Shown here piece after piece: positions 5,370 to 64,000 of a stretch of DNA of 64,000 bases. The position numbers and the translations under genes are program-made. This DNA comes from Dehalococcoidia bacterium (GTDB lineage Bacteria > Chloroflexota > Dehalococcoidia > Plut-88900). The first letter of the stretch is position 1. The number at the start of each line of letters is the position of its first letter. Location: the NCBI GenBank assembly GCA_965197585.1, contig OZ240215.1, positions 1,856,001 to 1,920,000 on the forward strand, read 5' to 3'. A model generated the notes under the pieces. The model was not told the DNA's origin. It saw only the letters and a list, made by a program, of their open reading frames with translations, and ran no database searches.

Positions 5370-6425
5370 TGTAGATGTCAGATGATTCGTTGACAGAATT
5401 AGAGGGATTGAAGGGTCTCCAAAGGGGTCTTTCCGTCCATTGCCTGATGGGGTCTTTGGGTATTGTAGTAGAGCAGATATTGCTGCAGTTCGTCCCGCAG
5501 TTCAGCCACCGACTCGAAGGTGGTCCCCTCCAGCAGGTCCTCGTTCAGGGTCCTCCAGAACCGCTCTATCTTCCCGTTAGTCTGGGGCCTATAAGGGCGA
5601 GTGTAGCGGTGCTTGATGCCCAGCTCCTTGAGCATCCGTTCCATGGGGTGGCCCTCGATGTTCCTGGGCGAGGCCATCTCGGGGCCATTGTCGGTGAGGA
5701 TGGCCTCGAATTTGATGCCGTACTCCGCATTAAGGAAGTTGATGGATTTCAGGGTTGCGAACATGACAGAGAGGCTCTTGATGTCTCCGACCACTTCGGC
5801 CCAGGCCAAGCGGGTGCAGGCGTCGATGAGGGCTACCAGGTAGTAACGGCGCTTGGAGTCTACCAGGAGGTCCCGGCTGAGGTGGTGGCTGTCCAGGTGC
5901 CCCAACTCCCCTGCCCGGGTCTTGATGATCTTGCGCTTCGATTGCTGCATCGGCTTTGTGAGCCTATTAACACCGTGGCGTCTGGTGATGGCGTAGATGG
6001 TAGAGGGCTTAGGGGTGTGCTGTTTGAGGATGGGCTTGAGTATGGCATATATCTCGTAGCGATTGGTACCGTTGAAGCATTCGCTGAGAACCTTCTGCTC
6101 TATGTAGGGCAGGGTACGGCGGCTCTTCCAATTGGGGCCCCGTTTACGGGGGAAGAAGGCTTCGTCGGAGGGGGAGAGGAGGAACCGGTTGTAGTACTTG
6201 GCAAAGGTCTGACGTGTAGTGCCGTGGAAGGCATAGAAATCCTGGGCGAAGCGGAAGCGGGGATGCTTCCTGGCCTTGACCAATCGGTATTCCTGTATGA
6301 GGAATCGCCACTTCTGAATGTAGTTCCTTTCAAGGGTGAGATCCTTGCTGTTGTCTCGCATTTTCGCCTCCAGATTGGTGTTGGCCTCTTATACCAATCT
6401 GTCAACGAATTACCTAACACTTACA
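5370..6425 (-). mobile_element. Complete IS481-family insertion sequence
   Basis: TGT...ACA ends; 28-bp imperfect IRs (5370-5397 / 6398-6425, 23/28 match); 5-bp duplication ATTCC at 5365-5369 and 6426-6430. Confidence 0.9.
5399..6361 (-). CDS. IS481-family DDE (rve) transposase
   Basis: GELGHLDS, IDACTR, TDNGPEM, PYRPQTNGKIERFWRTL and YYNTQRPHQAM motifs. Confidence 0.93.
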   Translation of the reverse strand: MRDNSKDLTLERNYIQKWRFLIQEYRLVKARKHPRFRFAQDFYAFHGTTRQTFAKYYNRFLLSPSDEAFFPRKRGPNWKSRRTLPYIEQKVLSECFNGTNRYEIYAILKPILKQHTPKPSTIYAITRRHGVNRLTKPMQQSKRKIIKTRAGELGHLDSHHLSRDLLVDSKRRYYLVALIDACTRLAWAEVVGDIKSLSVMFATLKSINFLNAEYGIKFEAILTDNGPEMASPRNIEGHPMERMLKELGIKHRYTRPYRPQTNGKIERFWRTLNEDLLEGTTFESVAELRDELQQYLLYYNTQRPHQAMDGKTPLETLQSL

Positions 6426-11757: not shown

Positions 11758-13119
11758 CTACCCCTCCCCCAACCTCGCCACCAGATAAGCCATATCCCTA
11801 TCCCCCTTGATCCGATTGCAATTCGGGCACAGCAGCTGAAGATTCTCCGGGTGGTCCGACCCTCCCCGACTCCTCGGCACCACGTGGTCCACCTCCATGA
11901 TCCTGAACAGGAACTCAACCTTGCACCCCCCACACCTCCCCTCCTGCCGGCCAAACAGCACGTGCTTCTGCTTCCGGTACGGTATCGGCGCCTCGATATC
12001 CGTCCGCCGAGGAATGTCCGTCCGAGCCGTCACCAGCCGGTCGTGGAACAGGTCTCCCATGAACTCCCGCAGCCGCATGTTCACCAGCTCGACAGCCTTC
12101 TCCGATATGTCTATCCCCACCCACTTCCTCCCCAGCCTCTCCGCCGCCACACACGCCGTCGCACACCCGCAAAACGGGTCCAGCACCACGTCTCCCGGAT
12201 TGGATGACGCCGAGATAATCCGTTCCAGGAGGGCGAGGGGCTTTTGGGTCGGATAGCCTATCCGCTCCTTAGCCTGGGAGTTGATGGCGTTGATGTCTGT
12301 CCATACCGCCTGAAGTGGCCTGCCCTTCATTTCATCGAGGTATCTCTTCAACCTAATGCCGCCCCGACTTGTGAAGTGCAGGCGTCCTTCCTCATCCAGT
12401 CTTCGCATTGTCTCTAATGGAACACGCCACAGTGACGAAATGCCCTTATATTCATATTCGTACCCGCCACCTGATAACCCTTTGGCTGTAATGTCGTAGT
12501 CGGCCCATGCCCGTCCGTCGGGGTCTCGCTGCCGAAATCTGGCTATGTAGGTATCGTCGTGCGGCTGATATAGAGAATTCCAAGTCCAACTCTCACGGTT
12601 CGAGTAAAACAAAATCACGTCAGAGTTTTTCCCATATCGGACTGAGTCGTTGTGTGCGGTAGTTCGTTGCCAGGTGATTTCATTCTGAAACTGTGCTGAC
12701 CCAAATATCGAGTCCATCAACAACTTCAGGTAATGGCTAGCCGTCGGGTCACAGTGCAGGTATATCGACCCCGTCTCCCTCAGCACCCGACGCATCTCCA
12801 GCAGCCGCACGGCCATCATGCACAGGTAGCTCTGCATCCCCTTCCCGTGCGTCAGCCCCGCCGTCTCGATAACCTTGTACATCGCCGGCTGCTCATCGGC
12901 GATCAGGCCCATCCAGGCCGTGTCCAGGTCCGACAGCGTCCACGTGTCCTTGAACGCCGCCCCCGCCGCCCGTGACCCCACCGGCGCAGCATAGTTCCGG
13001 TTCGAGTTGAACGGCGGATCGAGATATATCAGGTCCACCGACTCCGAGTTCAACCCCCGCAATATATCGAGGTTGTCCCCCGTCCAGATCGTCTTGTCCA
13101 CAAAATTCGGCTCAGGCAT
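11758..13119 (-). CDS. Beta-class N4/N6 DNA methyltransferase fused to a C-terminal HNH endonuclease
   Basis: DLIYLDPPF, YPTQKP and VLDPFCGCAT motifs; C-terminal CGGC...EVDHVVPRSRGGSDHPENLQLLCPNCNRIK. Confidence 0.92.
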   Translation of the reverse strand: MPEPNFVDKTIWTGDNLDILRGLNSESVDLIYLDPPFNSNRNYAAPVGSRAAGAAFKDTWTLSDLDTAWMGLIADEQPAMYKVIETAGLTHGKGMQSYLCMMAVRLLEMRRVLRETGSIYLHCDPTASHYLKLLMDSIFGSAQFQNEITWQRTTAHNDSVRYGKNSDVILFYSNRESWTWNSLYQPHDDTYIARFRQRDPDGRAWADYDITAKGLSGGGYEYEYKGISSLWRVPLETMRRLDEEGRLHFTSRGGIRLKRYLDEMKGRPLQAVWTDINAINSQAKERIGYPTQKPLALLERIISASSNPGDVVLDPFCGCATACVAAERLGRKWVGIDISEKAVELVNMRLREFMGDLFHDRLVTARTDIPRRTDIEAPIPYRKQKHVLFGRQEGRCGGCKVEFLFRIMEVDHVVPRSRGGSDHPENLQLLCPNCNRIKGDRDMAYLVARLGEG

Positions 13120-13175: not shown

Positions 13176-13321
13176 AAAGACAGCCACCCCCCGCCCCCAA
13201 CCCTCCTTACCATTCCGATGCCCCGCGAGGTCGAAGATGCGCCTGTGGCGTGAGAGGGGGATTAAGGGAGTGAGGGTTCCCCGGTGGGGCTGGGGATGGG
13301 GCCGTAGGCTCGCCTCGGCGA

Positions 13322-13365
13322 GTGACATTTGCCTCTTGACTGATATAGGGCATGTGTTCTATATT
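13322..13365 (+). promoter_or_regulatory. Sigma70-type promoter with degenerate LexA-like box
   Basis: GTGACA-N8-TTGACT-N18-TATATT; GGGC-ATGT-GTTC abuts the -10. Confidence 0.6.
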
Positions 13366-13419
13366 TATGCCCGTACTGCCGATACTCAGGATATGCTACA
13401 ACCACGAAAGGATTGCCGA

Positions 13420-13789: not shown

Positions 13790-14095
13790 TCATCCCCCCC
13801 GAGGGGAGCCTGTCCGCCAAAGGCGGATCATTCCGAGGCCCTGAGAGCCGGAATCCATCCCCAGTGTGGGGAGGGGTAGTCCTGTCCCCTCTCCCTTGAG
13901 GGGAGAGGGCTAGAGCCTGCCCCGAGTCCCCCCGAGGGGGTGAGGGTGATCCCCTCCCCCAGCGCGGGGCCGCTCATCCTGAGGCACTCGAAGGGTCGAG
14001 CGAGGGGCGGCCCACCATCGCCATTCCTTCACGTCCGCACTCCCCACCCCACCCCCCTCTTCCCCGTCACTCCGAGGCCCCGCGAGGAATCTAGG
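13790..14095. repeat. Cluster of REP-like palindromes
   Basis: Same modules as 10690-11411, plus ccctctccc...gggagaggg (also at 28391-28429). Confidence 0.8.
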
Positions 14096-14146
14096 ACCTG
14101 CCCTCCCACACCTTGCCTAGCCTTCCTTCCCCTCCTCCCTGTTAAC

Positions 14147-14187
14147 GATATATCAGCCATGTTGCACAGCAACATGGCTGATATATC
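14147..14187. repeat. Perfect 19-bp inverted repeat with a 3-nt spacer
   Basis: gatatatcagccatgttgc-aca-gcaacatggctgatatatc. Confidence 0.9.
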
Positions 14188-14254
14188 AATAAAACAGGGC
14201 GGGTGGGCGGGACTCCATTTATTCCGAGGGGCCGAGGGGTATCCCTCCCCAAAA

Positions 14255-14298
14255 GTGACACGAACCCCTTGACTCAATAAGTACGCATGTACTATATT
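14255..14298 (+). promoter_or_regulatory. Sigma70-type promoter with LexA-like box, upstream of candidate ncRNA copy 1
   Basis: GTGACA-N8-TTGACT-N18-TATATT; GTAC-GCAT-GTAC at 14281-14292. Confidence 0.7.
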
Positions 14299-14343
14299 CT
14301 CCCTTGAATGGCCAATCACCCACCCCAACCACCAAGGAGGTAC

Positions 14344-14925
14344 AAAAACTAGGGAAGCCCACCCGACCCACCCGAGGACTCAACGCCTAAGCCCATCCCA
14401 ACGGCCCTCGCGCAGGCCCGCGGCACAAGCGAAAGCGGAACGTCCGCCTATGGAGGACCGCCATCTCCTCATCCCCATCGGGTCCCGTGTACCCTTCCCC
14501 CTTCCCTGACCATCAGGCGATGGAAGACGCCCTGGACCGTACATAAAAGTCTCCTCACGGAGCAACCCGACCCATGGAGCGGAACGGGGCAGCCCGTAGC
14601 CGAGGCCCGCTCGGCTCTCCGTCCGCTTCCTCAAATAAAACTGGGCCGCCCGCCACTCCGGGTTCCTGGATACAGGCGGCGAACTGGATACCCACTACTC
14701 CTGCGAGGGGAACTGACCCTGGACTTTCCCCTTCCTGCACCCGCCTCCGGCGGACAGCGCAGCCAACCCTTATTGGAGCCTATGACGGATGACGGACCCG
14801 TATGTCCGACCATACTTCCAGGTCTAGGCGGCGGCGGAGCCCCGTCCCCACGTTCCCGGGACGCCTCCAAGCCCGCATTATCTAAAAATAGGGAGCCTAA
14901 TCCAGCAAGCGTCTTCCATCGTCAA
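14344..14925 (+). ncRNA. Candidate large structured ncRNA, copy 1 (family not recognised)
   Basis: Homologous along its length to 61789-62337; frame-breaking indels; many stems kept by compensatory or wobble changes. Confidence 0.7.
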
Positions 14926-14965
14926 CCCAAAACCCCAAACAATACTCACAAACCCCACCCCACAG

Positions 14966-15625
14966 CTAAATACCCCCCAGCTTATCCTCCAGCCTCCGCA
15001 GCGACCGTTCCAGCTGGTGCTGTCGATAGGCCACCGTCAGGTCTCCCCGCGTACGCTCCACCACTCCCCTTACCATATCCGTCGTCCGCCGGAGCCCCGA
15101 GGTGATCCCGTCCGGGAAGTCGATCGTCGTCAGAGCCATGTAGATAGTGTCGATCTGCTCAAGCTTCCGCTCGCAAAGGTCTATGTCGCCCTTGCGAAGG
15201 GTGTCCAGGATGTGCCGGCGCATCTCCCCCACCGCCTCCCCCATCCCGTTTAGATAAGCCGGATACCCTACCCTTAGCTCGTCCGGGTCCGGTAAAGGAC
15301 TCTCCGATGCCAGGGACAGCGTGATCTGCCCCTCGGCGTACTCCTTTTGAGCGTCGTGCAGAAAGCCCGCGTGATATACAGATGGATGTCCTGCCAGCGA
15401 TTCTTCGGCCCTGTCCAGCAGCTCCCGGGCCCGTGCCAGCAGCCTCTTCGCCTCATCAAACTCCCCCCGGTGAGTCGCCCGGATCGAGTTGGCGCAATGC
15501 CGGATCGCGTCCCTCGACCCCCGCAGCCCCTCCTCCCGCGCCCCGTGCTTCTCCGATAGGCTTGCCCGGACCTTCTCGATTATCGGCCCCAGGTTGGAGA
15601 CCGGCCCCGGCCCTTCACTTGGCAT
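14966..15625 (-). CDS. Translin/Trax-family protein
   Basis: All-helical; AQKEYAEG, YLNGMGEAVGEMRR and GLRRTTDMVRGVVERTRGD motifs. Confidence 0.75.
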   Translation of the reverse strand: MPSEGPGPVSNLGPIIEKVRASLSEKHGAREEGLRGSRDAIRHCANSIRATHRGEFDEAKRLLARARELLDRAEESLAGHPSVYHAGFLHDAQKEYAEGQITLSLASESPLPDPDELRVGYPAYLNGMGEAVGEMRRHILDTLRKGDIDLCERKLEQIDTIYMALTTIDFPDGITSGLRRTTDMVRGVVERTRGDLTVAYRQHQLERSLRRLEDKLGGI

Positions 15626-28457: not shown

Positions 28458-28534
<77 letters not shown>

Positions 28535-61544: not shown

Positions 61545-61697
61545 TACCCGTCACCATCCCTTTCAGAGGCCAACTCCGAGCACCCTGGTTTTCCTCGGCC
61601 GATTATATCATTGTGAGGATAAGGAGTCTGCCTGAGTTTCTATGCAGAACAACTACGGAATCTACACAGGTCCCTATGATCCCGTTCACATAGAGGG

Positions 61698-61741
61698 GTG
61701 ACATCACCCTCTTGACATTATAAGTACCTATGTTCTATATT
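61698..61741 (+). promoter_or_regulatory. Sigma70-type promoter with LexA-like box, upstream of candidate ncRNA copy 2
   Basis: GTGACA-N8-TTGACA-N18-TATATT; GTAC-CTAT-GTTC at 61724-61735. Confidence 0.75.
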
Positions 61742-61788
61742 GGTGCCAGGTCTAGACCAACTAACCCAACTACCTTAAGGAGGAACCC

Positions 61789-62337
61789 AAAAACTAGGGA
61801 AGCCCACCCGGCCCCACCCGAGGACTCAACGCCTCAGCCCATCCCAACGGCCCTCGCGCAGGCCCGCGGCACAAGCAAACGCCGCCATCTCCTCAACCAC
61901 CGGGTCCCGTGCCCCCTTCCCTGACCACTAGGCGATGGAAGACGCCCTGGACCGTACTTGAAAGTCTCCTTACGGAGCAACCTTGTCCCATGAGCGGAAC
62001 GGGGCAGCCCGTAGCCGAGGACCGCTCGGCTCTCTGTCCGCTTCCTCAAATAAACTGGGCTGCCGCCGTCTCCCGGCTCCTGGCTTCAGGCGGCGAACCG
62101 GATACCCCGTACTCCTGCGAGGGGAACTGACCCTGGACTTTCCCCTTCCTGCACCCGCCTACGGCGGACAGCGCAGCCAACCTTTATTGGAGCCTATGAC
62201 GGATGACGGACCCGTACGTCCGACCATACTTCCAGGTCTAGGCGGCGGCGGAGCCCCGTCCCACGCTCCCGGGACGCCTCCATGCCCGCATTATCTAAAT
62301 GTAGGGAGCCTAATCCGGCAAGCGTCTTTCATCGCCT
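61789..62337 (+). ncRNA. Candidate large structured ncRNA, copy 2 (family not recognised)
   Basis: Homologous to 14344-14925; see findings. Confidence 0.7.
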
Positions 62338-62579
62338 TCCCAAAACCTAACAGACAGAACGGAAACCGAAACCCCACAATCGAAGATCCGCCTCTGGAGG
62401 ACTGAAGAAAAGGCCAGTGTGTCACTAATCTACCGAACGAGTACAACCTATTGATATGCCCCGTCCAAACCGGTATCTTTCATTGGATTCGCCAACAGTC
62501 GGTATGGTCGGCGGAGGACCAACCGACAGACTGGCAAGCCCGGCGCACCACCGATTTGGACGGGATGTCATAAACACAA

Positions 62580-64000
62580 GTGCGCTTTAACTTAAACTAC
62601 GACATTCAAACCCTGCGCGGAGACCTCTTCGGAGGAGTCACCGCCGCCGTCGTCGGATTGCCCGTGGCCCTTGCCTTTGGGGTCGCATCGGGCCTCGGAG
62701 CCATCGCCGGTCTATACGGTGCCATCGCCGTCGGTTTCTTCGCCTCTGTTTTTGGAGGCACCAAGTCTCAGATATCCGGCCCCACCGGACCCATGGCTGT
62801 GGCGATGGCAGTCATAGTCACGACCCACTCCGATACCCTCGCCGAGGCCTTCACTGTAGTCGTGCTGGCGGGGGCAATTCAGATACTACTGGGAGTCCTG
62901 CGGATAGGGCGCTTTGTAGCCTACACGCCCTATTCGGTTATTTCCGGGTTCATGTCCGGCATTGGCATTATCATCATGCTCCTGCAGGTCCTCCCATTCC
63001 TCGGCGCAGACACATTAACAGGCGGTCCTAGAAGCGCTATCCGAGCCATACCCGACGCTATCCAAGCCTTCAACTCTAATTCTTTCATCATCGCCATCGT
63101 TACCCTAGCCGTAGGAGTATTATGGCCCCGCCAACTGAGAAGGTACCTCCCGCCTACCCTCGCCGCCCTCATTGTCGGCACAATCATCGGCGTCCTATGG
63201 CTGACCCATACTCCAGTTATCGGCGAAGTGCCCTCCGGACTCCCCGAATTTCAGATCCCGGTATTCGACGCCGGTCTGCTAGCCAGCGCCATTCAACCAG
63301 CCCTTATCCTTGCCCTGCTCGGCTCCATAGACAGTCTGCTCACCTCCCTGATAGCCGACTCCATCACTCGAACCCAGCACAGCCCCAACAGGGAGCTGGT
63401 GGGACAAGGCGTAGGAAACGCTATTGCGGGTCTGATAGGCGGTCTGCCTGGTGCTGGTGCTACTCTGGGCACGGTTGTCAACATCCGGGCGGGCGGCAGG
63501 TCTCGGCTCTCCGGTGTATTGCGGGCGGCCATCCTCTTTGCCTTGGTTCTCGGTCTCGGGAGATACGTCGAATCAATCCCCCACGCAGTCCTGGCCGGTA
63601 TCCTGATGAAGGTTGGCTGGGACATCATCGATTGGCGTTTCCTTACCAGAATCCTCAAAGTCCAGAAGGAGCACCTGCTGGTGATGGTGATCACCCTCGC
63701 GCTCACCGTCTTCCTTGACCTTGTCACCGCAGTGGCCATAGGTCTGATTGCTGCCGGTATGGCCAGCGCCCGGCAGTTCGAACGCCTGGAGCTGGATAGG
63801 GTGATATCCACTCCGCTGCTGGACATCAGTTTCCTCGGTACGGAACCCGATAGCGAGGACGATGAAGAAGTGGATCCGTTCTCGGCACGTGTCGGTCTGC
63901 TTGCTCTCAGGGGCACCTTCTCCGTTGCCTCGTCTAAAAAGCTCGTCAGCGCTATCAGCGAAGACATCCGAGACCACGATGTAGTCATATTCGACTTTTC
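62580..64000 (+). CDS. SulP/SLC26 anion transporter (BicA-like); 3' end runs off the window
   Basis: Hand translation from GTG 62580: GDLFGGVTAAVVGLPVALAFGVASG...ISGPTGPM...NRELVGQG...GATLGTVVNI. Confidence 0.92.
   Translation, partial: MRFNLNYDIQTLRGDLFGGVTAAVVGLPVALAFGVASGLGAIAGLYGAIAVGFFASVFGGTKSQISGPTGPMAVAMAVIVTTHSDTLAEAFTVVVLAGAIQILLGVLRIGRFVAYTPYSVISGFMSGIGIIIMLLQVLPFLGADTLTGGPRSAIRAIPDAIQAFNSNSFIIAIVTLAVGVLWPRQLRRYLPPTLAALIVGTIIGVLWLTHTPVIGEVPSGLPEFQIPVFDAGLLASAIQPALILALLGSIDSLLTSLIADSITRTQHSPNRELVGQGVGNAIAGLIGGLPGAGATLGTVVNIRAGGRSRLSGVLRAAILFALVLGLGRYVESIPHAVLAGILMKVGWDIIDWRFLTRILKVQKEHLLVMVITLALTVFLDLVTAVAIGLIAAGMASARQFERLELDRVISTPLLDISFLGTEPDSEDDEEVDPFSARVGLLALRGTFSVASSKKLVSAISEDIRDHDVVIFDF

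Follow-up and report, generated by a model that had tools for sequence, protein, structure and literature searches.

MITEAba12 is an example of the miniature inverted-repeat transposable elements (MITEs) and mobile insertion cassettes of bacteria (PMC6382973), the classes of small repeat found in bacterial genomes have been reviewed (PMC3184786), and the reuse of promoters in prokaryotes has been discussed under the name of mobile promoters (PMC3575422). Here we describe an element family that is represented by two intergenic copies, copy 1 and copy 2, in a stretch of 64,000 nucleotides from a Dehalococcoidia bacterium (GenBank assembly GCA_965197585.1, contig OZ240215.1, positions 1,856,001 to 1,920,000 of the forward strand), referred to below as the window. 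In common with MITEs and mobile insertion cassettes the element has terminal inverted repeats, short target duplications, no transposase gene and many intergenic copies, it is present or absent between relatives, and its ends resemble those of a resident insertion sequence (IS). It is suggested here, with a probability of about two-thirds (0.68), that the element is a non-autonomous DNA transposon family which carries as its cargo the gene of a transcribed, structured non-coding RNA (ncRNA).

Copy number, ends and insertion sites

The genomes compared are metagenome-assembled genomes (MAGs) from an uncultured, sponge-associated lineage of Dehalococcoidia; the window's own genome (G000) is a single contig of 3.43 Mb, and the other G numbers used below denote further genomes of its genus. 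An earlier note, made from the letters of the window alone, had described two segments, at 14344-14925 and 61789-62337, that align from end to end. Alignment confirmed the match over the whole span, with a mean column identity of 87% for copies 1 and 2 together with their flanks (MAFFT, 830 columns). The note was also right to call the element multicopy, although two copies proved to be far too few. When the own genome was searched at the DNA level 43 matches were obtained, ten of which are nearly full length with 85-100% identity, and two rounds of nhmmer with the promoter and the 5' part gave 80 hits, of which 57 (score above 150) span the whole promoter and 5' domain and are taken here as full copies. 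Similarity downstream also links all 57.

Outside the own genome the family was detected by blastn in all eight other genomes of the genus, with many copies in each, and in none of 32 genomes from other genera of the class. Of 141 genomes of the class, six were matched by a covariance model of the 5' domain, all within the genus; the single genome of another genus in the same taxonomic family was unmatched, as were those of other families. When 185,579 species genomes were scanned for exact patterns, at least 91 stretches were returned and, among the matches listed, all come from Dehalococcoidia bacterium MAGs, the group in which the earlier note had proposed that homologues be sought. Viral contigs gave no match to the family, and five short metagenome contigs, from one assembly, did match. 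In addition the own genome has a sister family (family 2) of 14 copies, with the same promoter and a different 5' domain. The closing-helix strand common to the main family is found in 11 of these 14, and recognisable transposon ends in none. The 5' domain of the sister family (for example at loci L243-L246 of G000) begins AAAGGAG-TCCC-ATGAGTCGCAC, in which a Shine-Dalgarno sequence is followed by ATG and by an Arg- and Pro-rich open frame; the variation within the domain resembles that of loops, as in GAGCGG-TATGNNA-CCGCCC.

Intact units of the main family are 740-885 bp in length. Copy 2, in which both ends are present, has the following features.

61672-61676: left target duplication CCCTA; a single CCCTA stands before TTGATA in the empty site of G003
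61677-61703, plus strand: left terminal inverted repeat TGATCCCGTTCACATAGAGGGGTGACA
61712-61741, plus strand: promoter P1 (TTGACA, 18-nt spacer, TATATT), 11 of 12 matches in the promoter scan
61777-61923, plus strand: AAGGAGG (61777-61783) and 5' domain, with helix P1 at 61795-61802 / 61916-61923
61931-62336, plus strand: 3' domain of type A, with its closing helix at 61931-61945 / 62322-62336, the 3' strand of which is GCGTCTTTCATCGCC
62337-62418, plus strand: C-rich tail with one small hairpin module (62387-62401) and no U-tract terminator
62419-62445, plus strand: right terminal inverted repeat GTGTCACTAATCTACCGAACGAGTACA
62446-62450: right target duplication ACCTA
62451-62479, plus strand: host promoter P2 (TTGATA, 17-nt spacer, TATCTT; 9 of 12 matches) of a SulP-like permease open reading frame (ORF) that runs from 62580 onward

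The terminal inverted repeats are 27 nt long, imperfect and of the form 5'-TG...CA-3', and the left repeat and the right repeat, ...TGTCACTAATCTACCGAACGAGTACA, share CGTTC..TAGA..GTGACA in inverted order. At copy 2 the similarity between copies starts exactly at 61677 (query position 1278) and stops at 62445 (query position 2046). When up to six mismatches are allowed the own genome has 16 left and 25 right end motifs, and both ends are present in 14 of the 57 copies. The 5-bp flanks of these two-ended units are identical in seven cases, agree at four of five positions in four and at three of five in one, and are offset in the remaining two; a single perfect 5-bp match would occur by chance about once in 1000. 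The earlier note had seen neither terminal inverted repeats nor a target duplication. This was correct for the ends of copy 1, from which both terminal repeats are missing, but not for copy 2, where the two repeats and the pair CCCTA/ACCTA lie just outside the segment that it had delimited.

An empty site was found at the amt-sulP locus, which contains copy 2 and is the single locus examined in depth for this purpose. In G003 the locus has no element and the left flank continues directly as CCCTA-TTGATA, the sulP promoter; this is host promoter P2, which in the window directly abuts the right duplication of copy 2 and in the empty site is contiguous with the left flank. Elements are present at the same locus in G000, G002 and G005; in G002 and G005 identity to the window is 88-94% in the flanks, but the 3' domain of the element differs from that of copy 2 and cannot be aligned with it.

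The right end precedes a -35-like hexamer of the host by exactly 5 bp: the hexamer at +6 after the 25 right ends starts with TTG in 16 cases and with TT in 20, and TAnnnT follows 16-18 nt beyond it in 20. The promoters behind the right ends serve the host genes downstream, which include two tRNA genes. In a count of gene context made with a crude codon-usage gene caller script, each of the 28 tail-bearing copies has a co-oriented gene after it (an ORF in 27 and a tRNA gene in one), and the gene downstream of the 29 tail-less copies is co-oriented in 18 and convergent in 11, copy 1 being one of the convergent cases. A tally over all 57 copies gave 45 with a co-oriented gene downstream and 12 with a convergent one. 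The genes downstream of the copies, tRNAs included, are functionally unrelated. One element (G000:C1:659304-661379) has itself received another IS, with a 438-aa frame and an rve domain, between its left terminal repeat and its promoter, and its flanks, CTGCA/CTGCT, are still recognisable.

Promoter, RNA domains and transcription

Across the copies the promoter has the layout GTGACAC, 7 nt, TTGAC, 17-18 nt, TAnnnT. It is a sigma-70 promoter near consensus and it lies where the earlier note had placed the promoter of the RNA; its hexamers are kept in essentially all of the 57 copies, as counted by eye from the alignment. The promoter spacer and a leader of about 30 nt vary between subfamilies, and the fixation of the -35 and -10 hexamers and of AAGGAGG while spacer and leader diverge is the pattern expected of selection on function. 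After the promoter comes about 650-750 nt of C-rich sequence without an ORF. The 5' domain, of about 165 nt, is the best-conserved part of the unit; the 3' domain, of 331-559 nt, is closed by a conserved 15-bp helix, GGCGATGGAAG.../...CTTCCATCGCC; and the unstructured, C-rich tail holds from zero to two small hairpin modules and ends in GTGTCACTAATCTACCGAACGAGTACA in 25-29 copies. The corresponding features of copy 1 are as follows.

14255-14298, plus strand: promoter P1, 10 of 12 matches in the scan, composed of upstream GTGACAC (14255-14261), -35 TTGACT (14269-14274), an 18-nt spacer and -10 TATATT (14293-14298)
near 14305, plus strand: probable RNA start
14334-14340, plus strand: Shine-Dalgarno-like AAGGAGG with no start codon after it, invariant in a 17-sequence alignment and in five orthologues
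14350-14508, plus strand: 5' domain, with helices P1, P2 and P3, hairpin H2 and the invariant unpaired CCCGAGGACTCAACGCCTAAGCCCATCCCAA
14350-14357 / 14501-14508, plus strand: helix P1 of the 5' domain, TAGGGAAG / CTTCCCTG
14436-14457, plus strand: 22-nt small-hairpin module CGGAACGTCCGCCTATGGAGGA, found only in copy 1, with a gap opposite in copy 2
14516-14923, plus strand: 3' domain of type A, closed by a 15-bp helix
14516-14530 / 14909-14923, plus strand: closing helix, GGCGATGGAAGACGC / GCGTCTTCCATCGTC
14924-14965, plus strand: shortened C-rich tail, without the right terminal repeat

Directly after the tail of copy 1 comes the 3' end of a convergent ORF (14966-15625, minus strand). Much of what the earlier note had read from the two copies could be recovered: the helices that it placed at 14350/14501 and 14516/14909, and the GCGTCTTTCATCGCC strand of copy 2, are where it put them, the three 1-nt indels that it quoted are all present, together with the 22-nt insertion of copy 1, and the differences that it described as confined to loops or consistent with wobble pairing are visible in an alignment of 41 sequences.

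Analysis of the 5' domain with a covariance model brought together 89 copies from six genomes (88 distinct sequences). In the resulting alignment, which is fitted to the structural model and in this way favours structure, 91.8% of cells are paired, against 42-52% in slid controls. Sixteen of the 28 pairs have changed on both sides, whereas shuffles gave 11.1 +/- 1.6 (none of 500 as high) and slid controls 3-9, and the covariation score is 0.185 against 0.016-0.050. The domain exists as two sequence variants that have the same architecture in different letters, with a CC/CC internal loop in both. Helix P1 is GGGAAG/CTTCCC or GGGGGAA/TTCCCCC, P2a is CAC/GTG or AGCC/GGCT, and P2b is GRCCC/GGGTC or GGCC/GGCC, while hairpin H2 takes the forms GGCC/GGCC, GGTC/GACC, GGCCCC/GGGGCC, GGGCGG/CCGCCC and GAGCG/CGCTC. 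The covarying helices P1, P2 and H2 surround an unpaired, invariant stretch of about 31 nt, CCCGAGGACUCAACGYCYNAGCCCAUCCCAA. An inner pairing that the earlier note had proposed, ACCCGR/YCGGGU, holds in the two copies of the window but is weakly associated across the family (the four combinations number 12, 8, 2 and 7, counted by eye); the alternative register GRCCC/GGGUC, with the CC/CC internal loop, fits both variants.

Of the 3' domain at least seven sequence types are present in the own genome (10, 10, 7, 6, 6, 6 and 5 copies), together with five singletons, and the similarity between types is short, local and always in the same orientation. Type A, with ten copies in the own genome, accounts for 47 of the 92 3' domains that were clustered. 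Comparison of the 92 gave twelve minus-strand hits, all of them local hairpins. An invertible segment or shufflon was ruled out, since no two types are reverse complements. Towards its inside the closing helix varies with the type, as GACGC/GCGTC, GATGC/GCGTC, GGTCC/GGACC or GGTTCCCG/CGGGAACC, and remains complementary. For 41 type-A domains from five genomes RNAalifold gave -133 kcal/mol on the plus strand against -108 on the minus strand. When seven more diverged members were added, 97.2% of 5016 cells pair (34-45% in slid controls) and eight of 108 pairs have changed on both sides, compared with 2.0 +/- 1.0 in shuffles (none of 500 as high) and 2-5 in slid controls, the structure being derived from the same sequences as those tested. 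Covariation, in the form of compensatory changes above shuffled and slid controls, supports a folding of both domains.

The locus of copy 1 is orthologous in five species, the own genome and G001, G002, G003 and G007. Between copy 1 and G007 identity is 19% in the upstream flank, 64% in the promoter, 33% in the leader, 69% in the 5' domain (where copy 1 has 29 extra nt), 59% in the 3' domain and 45% in the tail. Compensatory changes between these two include GGAC/GTCC to CAC/GTG and CGTCCC/GGGACG to GATGTCCC/GGGACATC, and in G004 and G006 TATG/CATA has become TGTG/CACA.

In the type-A alignment C>T changes on the plus strand exceed G>A changes, per site, both in unpaired columns (0.38 vs 0.17) and in paired columns (0.24 vs 0.086), and in the 41 copies this excess is independent of the orientation of the copy in the chromosome. 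Because it is also seen in unpaired columns, the excess of wobble pairs in the 3' domain reflects a general strand bias and is no proof of pairing. An excess of this kind is, however, what would be expected of the non-template strand of heavily transcribed DNA.

Sequence libraries offer a weak hint that the element is transcribed. In 14 runs labelled as RNA, from five studies and in several cases labelled sponge metagenome, 6-13% of the sampled words were found. Contigs of four RNA libraries cover 61788-62441 of copy 2, and the same four have no contig depth in 61664-61787 (promoter and leader) or in 62532-62655 (past the host promoter); this is contig cover from four runs, in which uncovered parts carry no evidence. 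The earlier note had reasoned that an empty site with a target duplication and no transcription would indicate a DNA-level MITE. The empty site and the duplication were found, but the silence was not. A scan for intrinsic terminators on the plus strand detected none in copy 1 or copy 2. Rho is encoded in the genome, and since the tail is C-rich and untranslated it is reasonable to suppose that the RNA is terminated by Rho before the host promoter is reached.

The element is non-coding. In agreement with the earlier note, which had seen no long shared ORF, no ORF of at least 25 aa is kept at full length across 41 close copies; the best-kept ORF occurs in 29 of the 41, at lengths of 168-465 nt and with variable ends, and the indels between copies are of 1, 2, 4 and 22 nt. 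A coding gene was ruled out: the frame of copy 1 that is open from 14350 begins with TAG and is broken by indels. GGA is enriched in the element (22 observed against about 8-10 expected). A CsrA/RsmA sponge was ruled out, PF02599 being unmatched in this genome while control genomes match. The search of Rfam 15 bore out the earlier note's view that no known RNA family is involved. For the whole window at the gathering score it found one tRNA (28458-28531) and nothing in the element; for copy 1 at E<=10 it found only chance microRNA-like matches of no more than 20 bits; and for representatives of the other 3'-domain types and of family 2 at E<=0.1 it found only flanking tRNA or signal recognition particle RNA and chance matches.

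Several further repeated modules and related promoters were noticed in the vicinity of the elements and beyond. The hairpin module of about 22 nt (GGAACRTCCGCC-loop-GGAGGA/GGCGG) recurs in zero, one or two copies across the genome, its sites including the 5' domain of copy 1, the tail of copy 2, other tails, family-2 leaders and upstream repeat modules, and its behaviour is that of a tiny insertion, either mobile or made by template switching. Upstream of copy 1, at about 13960-14254, is another repeated module, common to at least eight element copies, which contains a perfect 41-nt hairpin (14147-14187, GATATATCAGCCATGTTGC...GCAACATGGCTGATATATC) followed by AATAAAACAGGGCGGGTGGGCGGGAC; in other copies the module upstream is a different one, whose hairpin, AGAGGCCCACGTGCGTGC..., resembles a terminator. 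At about 13300-13390 of the window the same promoter type is weakly matched (GAGTGACA..CTTGAC..TATATT) in front of a likely protein gene (GAAAGGA..ATG), so that this promoter architecture is not confined to the RNA elements. The same promoter type at G000:C1:2522350-2522500 (locus L248) is followed by a run of degenerate tandem units resembling TCAATC(A/T)AG(T/A)CCAATCAA. A 453-aa ORF at 11758-13119 on the minus strand reads, from its translation, as a putative DNA methyltransferase (DPPF motif) with a C-terminal HNH nuclease motif.

Mechanism and rival explanations

Five-bp duplications and TG...CA ends are features of IS elements of the DDE type. The own genome has 29 rve matches, about 20 of which are ~99% identical copies of a 1.06-kb IS with a 320-aa transposase. 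A more diverged copy is present in the window:

5370-6425, minus strand: resident IS481-like IS copy, about 90% identical to the others, with its ORF at 5399-6361 on the minus strand

The transposase of this IS matches Pfam rve, rve_3 and rve_2, and NCBIfam transpos_IS481 (NF033577) was the best of six families with 184.4 bits, below the cut-off of 224. The IS has TGT...ACA ends and a 5-bp ATTCC duplication, and when its end is compared with the right end of the element, anchored at the tip, 18 of 29 positions are identical (20 of 32 by hand count), including the GTT.GGTA and TGACA blocks. Around the other rve genes examined in the own genome no IS was found whose ends come closer. The TG...CA ends of the element, its 5-bp duplication and the similar terminal sequence of the resident IS suggest that an IS481-like DDE transposase moves the element in trans. 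This enzyme may prefer a TGACA-like motif beside the cut site and could in this manner guide the element to -35 hexamers, which would explain the promoter-proximal targets. As to other enzymes, RVT_1 was unmatched in the own genome, and a retroelement was ruled out on that ground; no TnpB-type domain was found there; and nine IS110-type transposase genes are present, two of them directly upstream of element copies, both within a module upstream of the element that resembles a repetitive extragenic palindrome (REP).

Transcription of the RNA would start at promoter P1, and Rho would stop it in the tail, short of the host promoter. A Shine-Dalgarno-like sequence can stabilise the 5' end of an RNA, as in STAB-SD, and AAGGAGG may be a stabiliser of this kind. 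We consider a trans-acting RNA more likely than a cis-acting leader, since promoter, AAGGAGG and 5' domain are kept in copies that are followed by a convergent gene, among them copy 1, in which this holds over five species, and since one invariant unpaired stretch is present in all copies, whatever their context or 3' domain. Such an RNA most likely acts by binding partners; the constant 5' domain would hold one partner common to all copies, while the 3' domain varies. Antisense targets outside the elements were sought for the unpaired stretch, the CUCCUC stretch, the ACCCUGGA loop and the leader, and only chance-level matches of 11-13 nt and one of 17 nt with a mismatch were found; with no complementary target for the unpaired stretch elsewhere in the genome, a protein partner is the best guess. 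A bolder proposal, which we regard as doubtful, is that the family represents a new class of mobile, modular large ncRNA, in which a constant 5' domain shows the unpaired stretch of about 31 nt to a common partner, exchangeable 3' domains of 330-560 nt are linked to it by the 15-bp helix, a DDE transposon spreads tens of genes, each with its promoter, by homing to the upstream side of sigma-70 promoters, and the RNA either aids promoter-directed integration or forms a diversified family of trans-acting ribonucleoproteins.

A number of results weigh against the transposon with an RNA cargo. As a transposon it is incomplete in most copies, 43 having no recognisable pair of ends, and the identity between any two copies does not exceed about 94%, so that recent movement is not seen. 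The ends of the resident IS and of the element are just ~62% alike, and the resident IS copies all lie in a REP-like hairpin (GTCATTCC|GAGG..), in either orientation and not at promoters. As to the RNA, the transcript evidence consists of assembled contigs of a repeat with 57 copies, in which strand and ends are unreadable and for which DNA carry-over could give the same picture. Covariation of the 5' domain is seen solely on the model-fitted alignment and its support is to that extent weaker: on plain MAFFT alignments the domain shows no covariation, stack scans are almost without double changes, and the mutual information is dominated by subfamily blocks. Register shifts between the two sequence variants account for covariation being missed there. 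In the pairs of the 5' domain G-U and A-C number 92 and 63 cells, and with no clear G-U excess a DNA-level or minus-strand hairpin is conceivable for this part. The single-sequence fold of copy 1 is not significantly stable: set against 20 shuffles per strand it gave z = -0.99 on the plus strand and +1.30 on the minus strand, and five of the 20 shuffles fold as well as the plus strand of copy 1. Lastly, the swapping of 3' domains at the orthologous amt-sulP locus implies that gene conversion is active, and this could mimic purifying selection.

Taken together the fold of copy 1, the ratio of G-U to A-C and the swapped 3' domains would suit a DNA-level repeat, in effect a large MITE, whose promoter and hairpins are leftovers or DNA signals, whose RNA is without function and whose copies are kept alike by gene conversion. 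The terminal repeats, target duplications and empty site agree with it equally, the long closing inverted repeat could represent the ends of a nested element, and the genome is rich in other small mobile modules. Gene conversion could keep the copies similar without selection at each locus, and for this reason a selfish DNA repeat with incidental transcription stays alive as a rival. It is nevertheless unlikely, as it does not account for the fixed hexamers and AAGGAGG amid divergent spacer and leader, for double compensatory changes above shuffled and slid controls in both domains, for 3'-domain types that are never inverted relative to one another, for the strand-specific C>T excess or for the better folding of the plus strand. 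The fixed placement of all 28 tail-bearing copies 5 bp from the -35 of a co-oriented gene, the lack of an intrinsic terminator between P1 and P2, and the presence of Rho beside a C-rich, untranslated tail could instead mean that the unit is a portable module acting in cis, kept for its effect as a second strong promoter with a structured Rho-sensitive leader or through interference with the host promoter. Eleven of the 29 tail-less copies, however, face a convergent gene and have kept promoter and RNA, copy 1 being conserved in this situation at the same locus in five species; the downstream genes are unrelated and include two tRNA genes; and the fixed distance is more simply explained by target choice at insertion. 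We therefore think an action in cis improbable.

Still less can be said for an ordinary chromosomal ncRNA or ribozyme, multicopy and non-mobile, in the size class of OLE and ROOL, which is how the earlier note had interpreted the two segments. Size, an own promoter, covariation and the lack of an Rfam match would all allow it, as would copy 1 and the 42 other copies without recognisable end pairs, but the ends, duplications and empty site show mobility, and the family is confined to one genus. No invariant structure resembling a catalytic core, signature of self-cleavage or match to a known ribozyme family was found, so that nothing points to a ribozyme, and the likeness to OLE and ROOL goes no further than size; this explanation is very unlikely. 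That the RNA serves an IS110-family or TnpB-type enzyme in the manner of a bridge RNA or guide RNA could be argued from the nine IS110-type matches and the two that lie directly upstream of element copies. Yet just two of the 57 copies adjoin such a gene, the IS there being within the REP-like upstream module, the genome has no TnpB-type domain or reverse transcriptase, HEARO and the rest of Rfam are unmatched, and 5-bp duplications with TG...CA ends are of the DDE type, so that hardly any weight can be given to this possibility.

Relationship to known systems

Published descriptions of the element family were not found in full-text literature searches. Among known kinds of element, MITEs or mobile insertion cassettes of IS481-type descent come closest to it. 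MITEs are usually smaller than 740-885 bp, and the element departs from them in size, in the conservation of its interior as well as its ends, in its complete inward-facing promoter and covarying RNA cargo of about 650 nt, and in an oriented, base-pair-precise placement at a fixed 5 bp from the host -35. With the IS481 family it shares TGT...ACA termini and short duplications, and its right end has the ~62% identity to the ends of the resident IS; unlike that family it has no rve/DDE gene and is found at promoters, whereas the resident IS occupies the REP-like hairpin in both orientations.

If the transposon reading is true, this is a bacterial DNA transposon with a large, folded, promoter-driven RNA as its sole cargo, which lands precisely upstream of host promoters. 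Safe-site and promoter-directed integration are familiar from eukaryotic retroelements; to our knowledge promoter-directed integration is unusual for small bacterial DDE elements. The family could then serve as a test case for target choice at -35 hexamers in mobile DNA, and as a naturally diversified set of RNAs for studies of structure and partner binding. The units also account for a sizeable share of the "empty" intergenic DNA, and for many apparent orphan promoters, in this lineage.

Among large ncRNAs, OLE, ROOL and GOLLD resemble the RNA of the element in size class, in having an own promoter and in a multi-helix fold with long-range closing helices, and they are sometimes found on mobile DNA. 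There is no match to them in sequence or structure, however, and the present family differs in its tens of copies per genome, transposon ends, swappable 3' domains and restriction to one genus. We know of no bacterial ncRNA architecture described as a constant domain joined to swappable domains, with at least 57 genes in a genome of 3.4 Mb. The IS110 bridge RNA, the omega RNA of IS200/IS605 and group II introns offer a different parallel, each being a mobile element in which the conserved non-coding part is a structured RNA; the element, by contrast, has no linked recombinase, TnpB or reverse transcriptase, leaves a DDE-type footprint and has no Rfam match. With mobile promoters, finally, it has in common that the same promoter stands before unrelated sequences (family 1, family 2 and a few protein genes), the difference being that the promoter of the element drives an ncRNA within the mobile unit itself and not a host gene directly.

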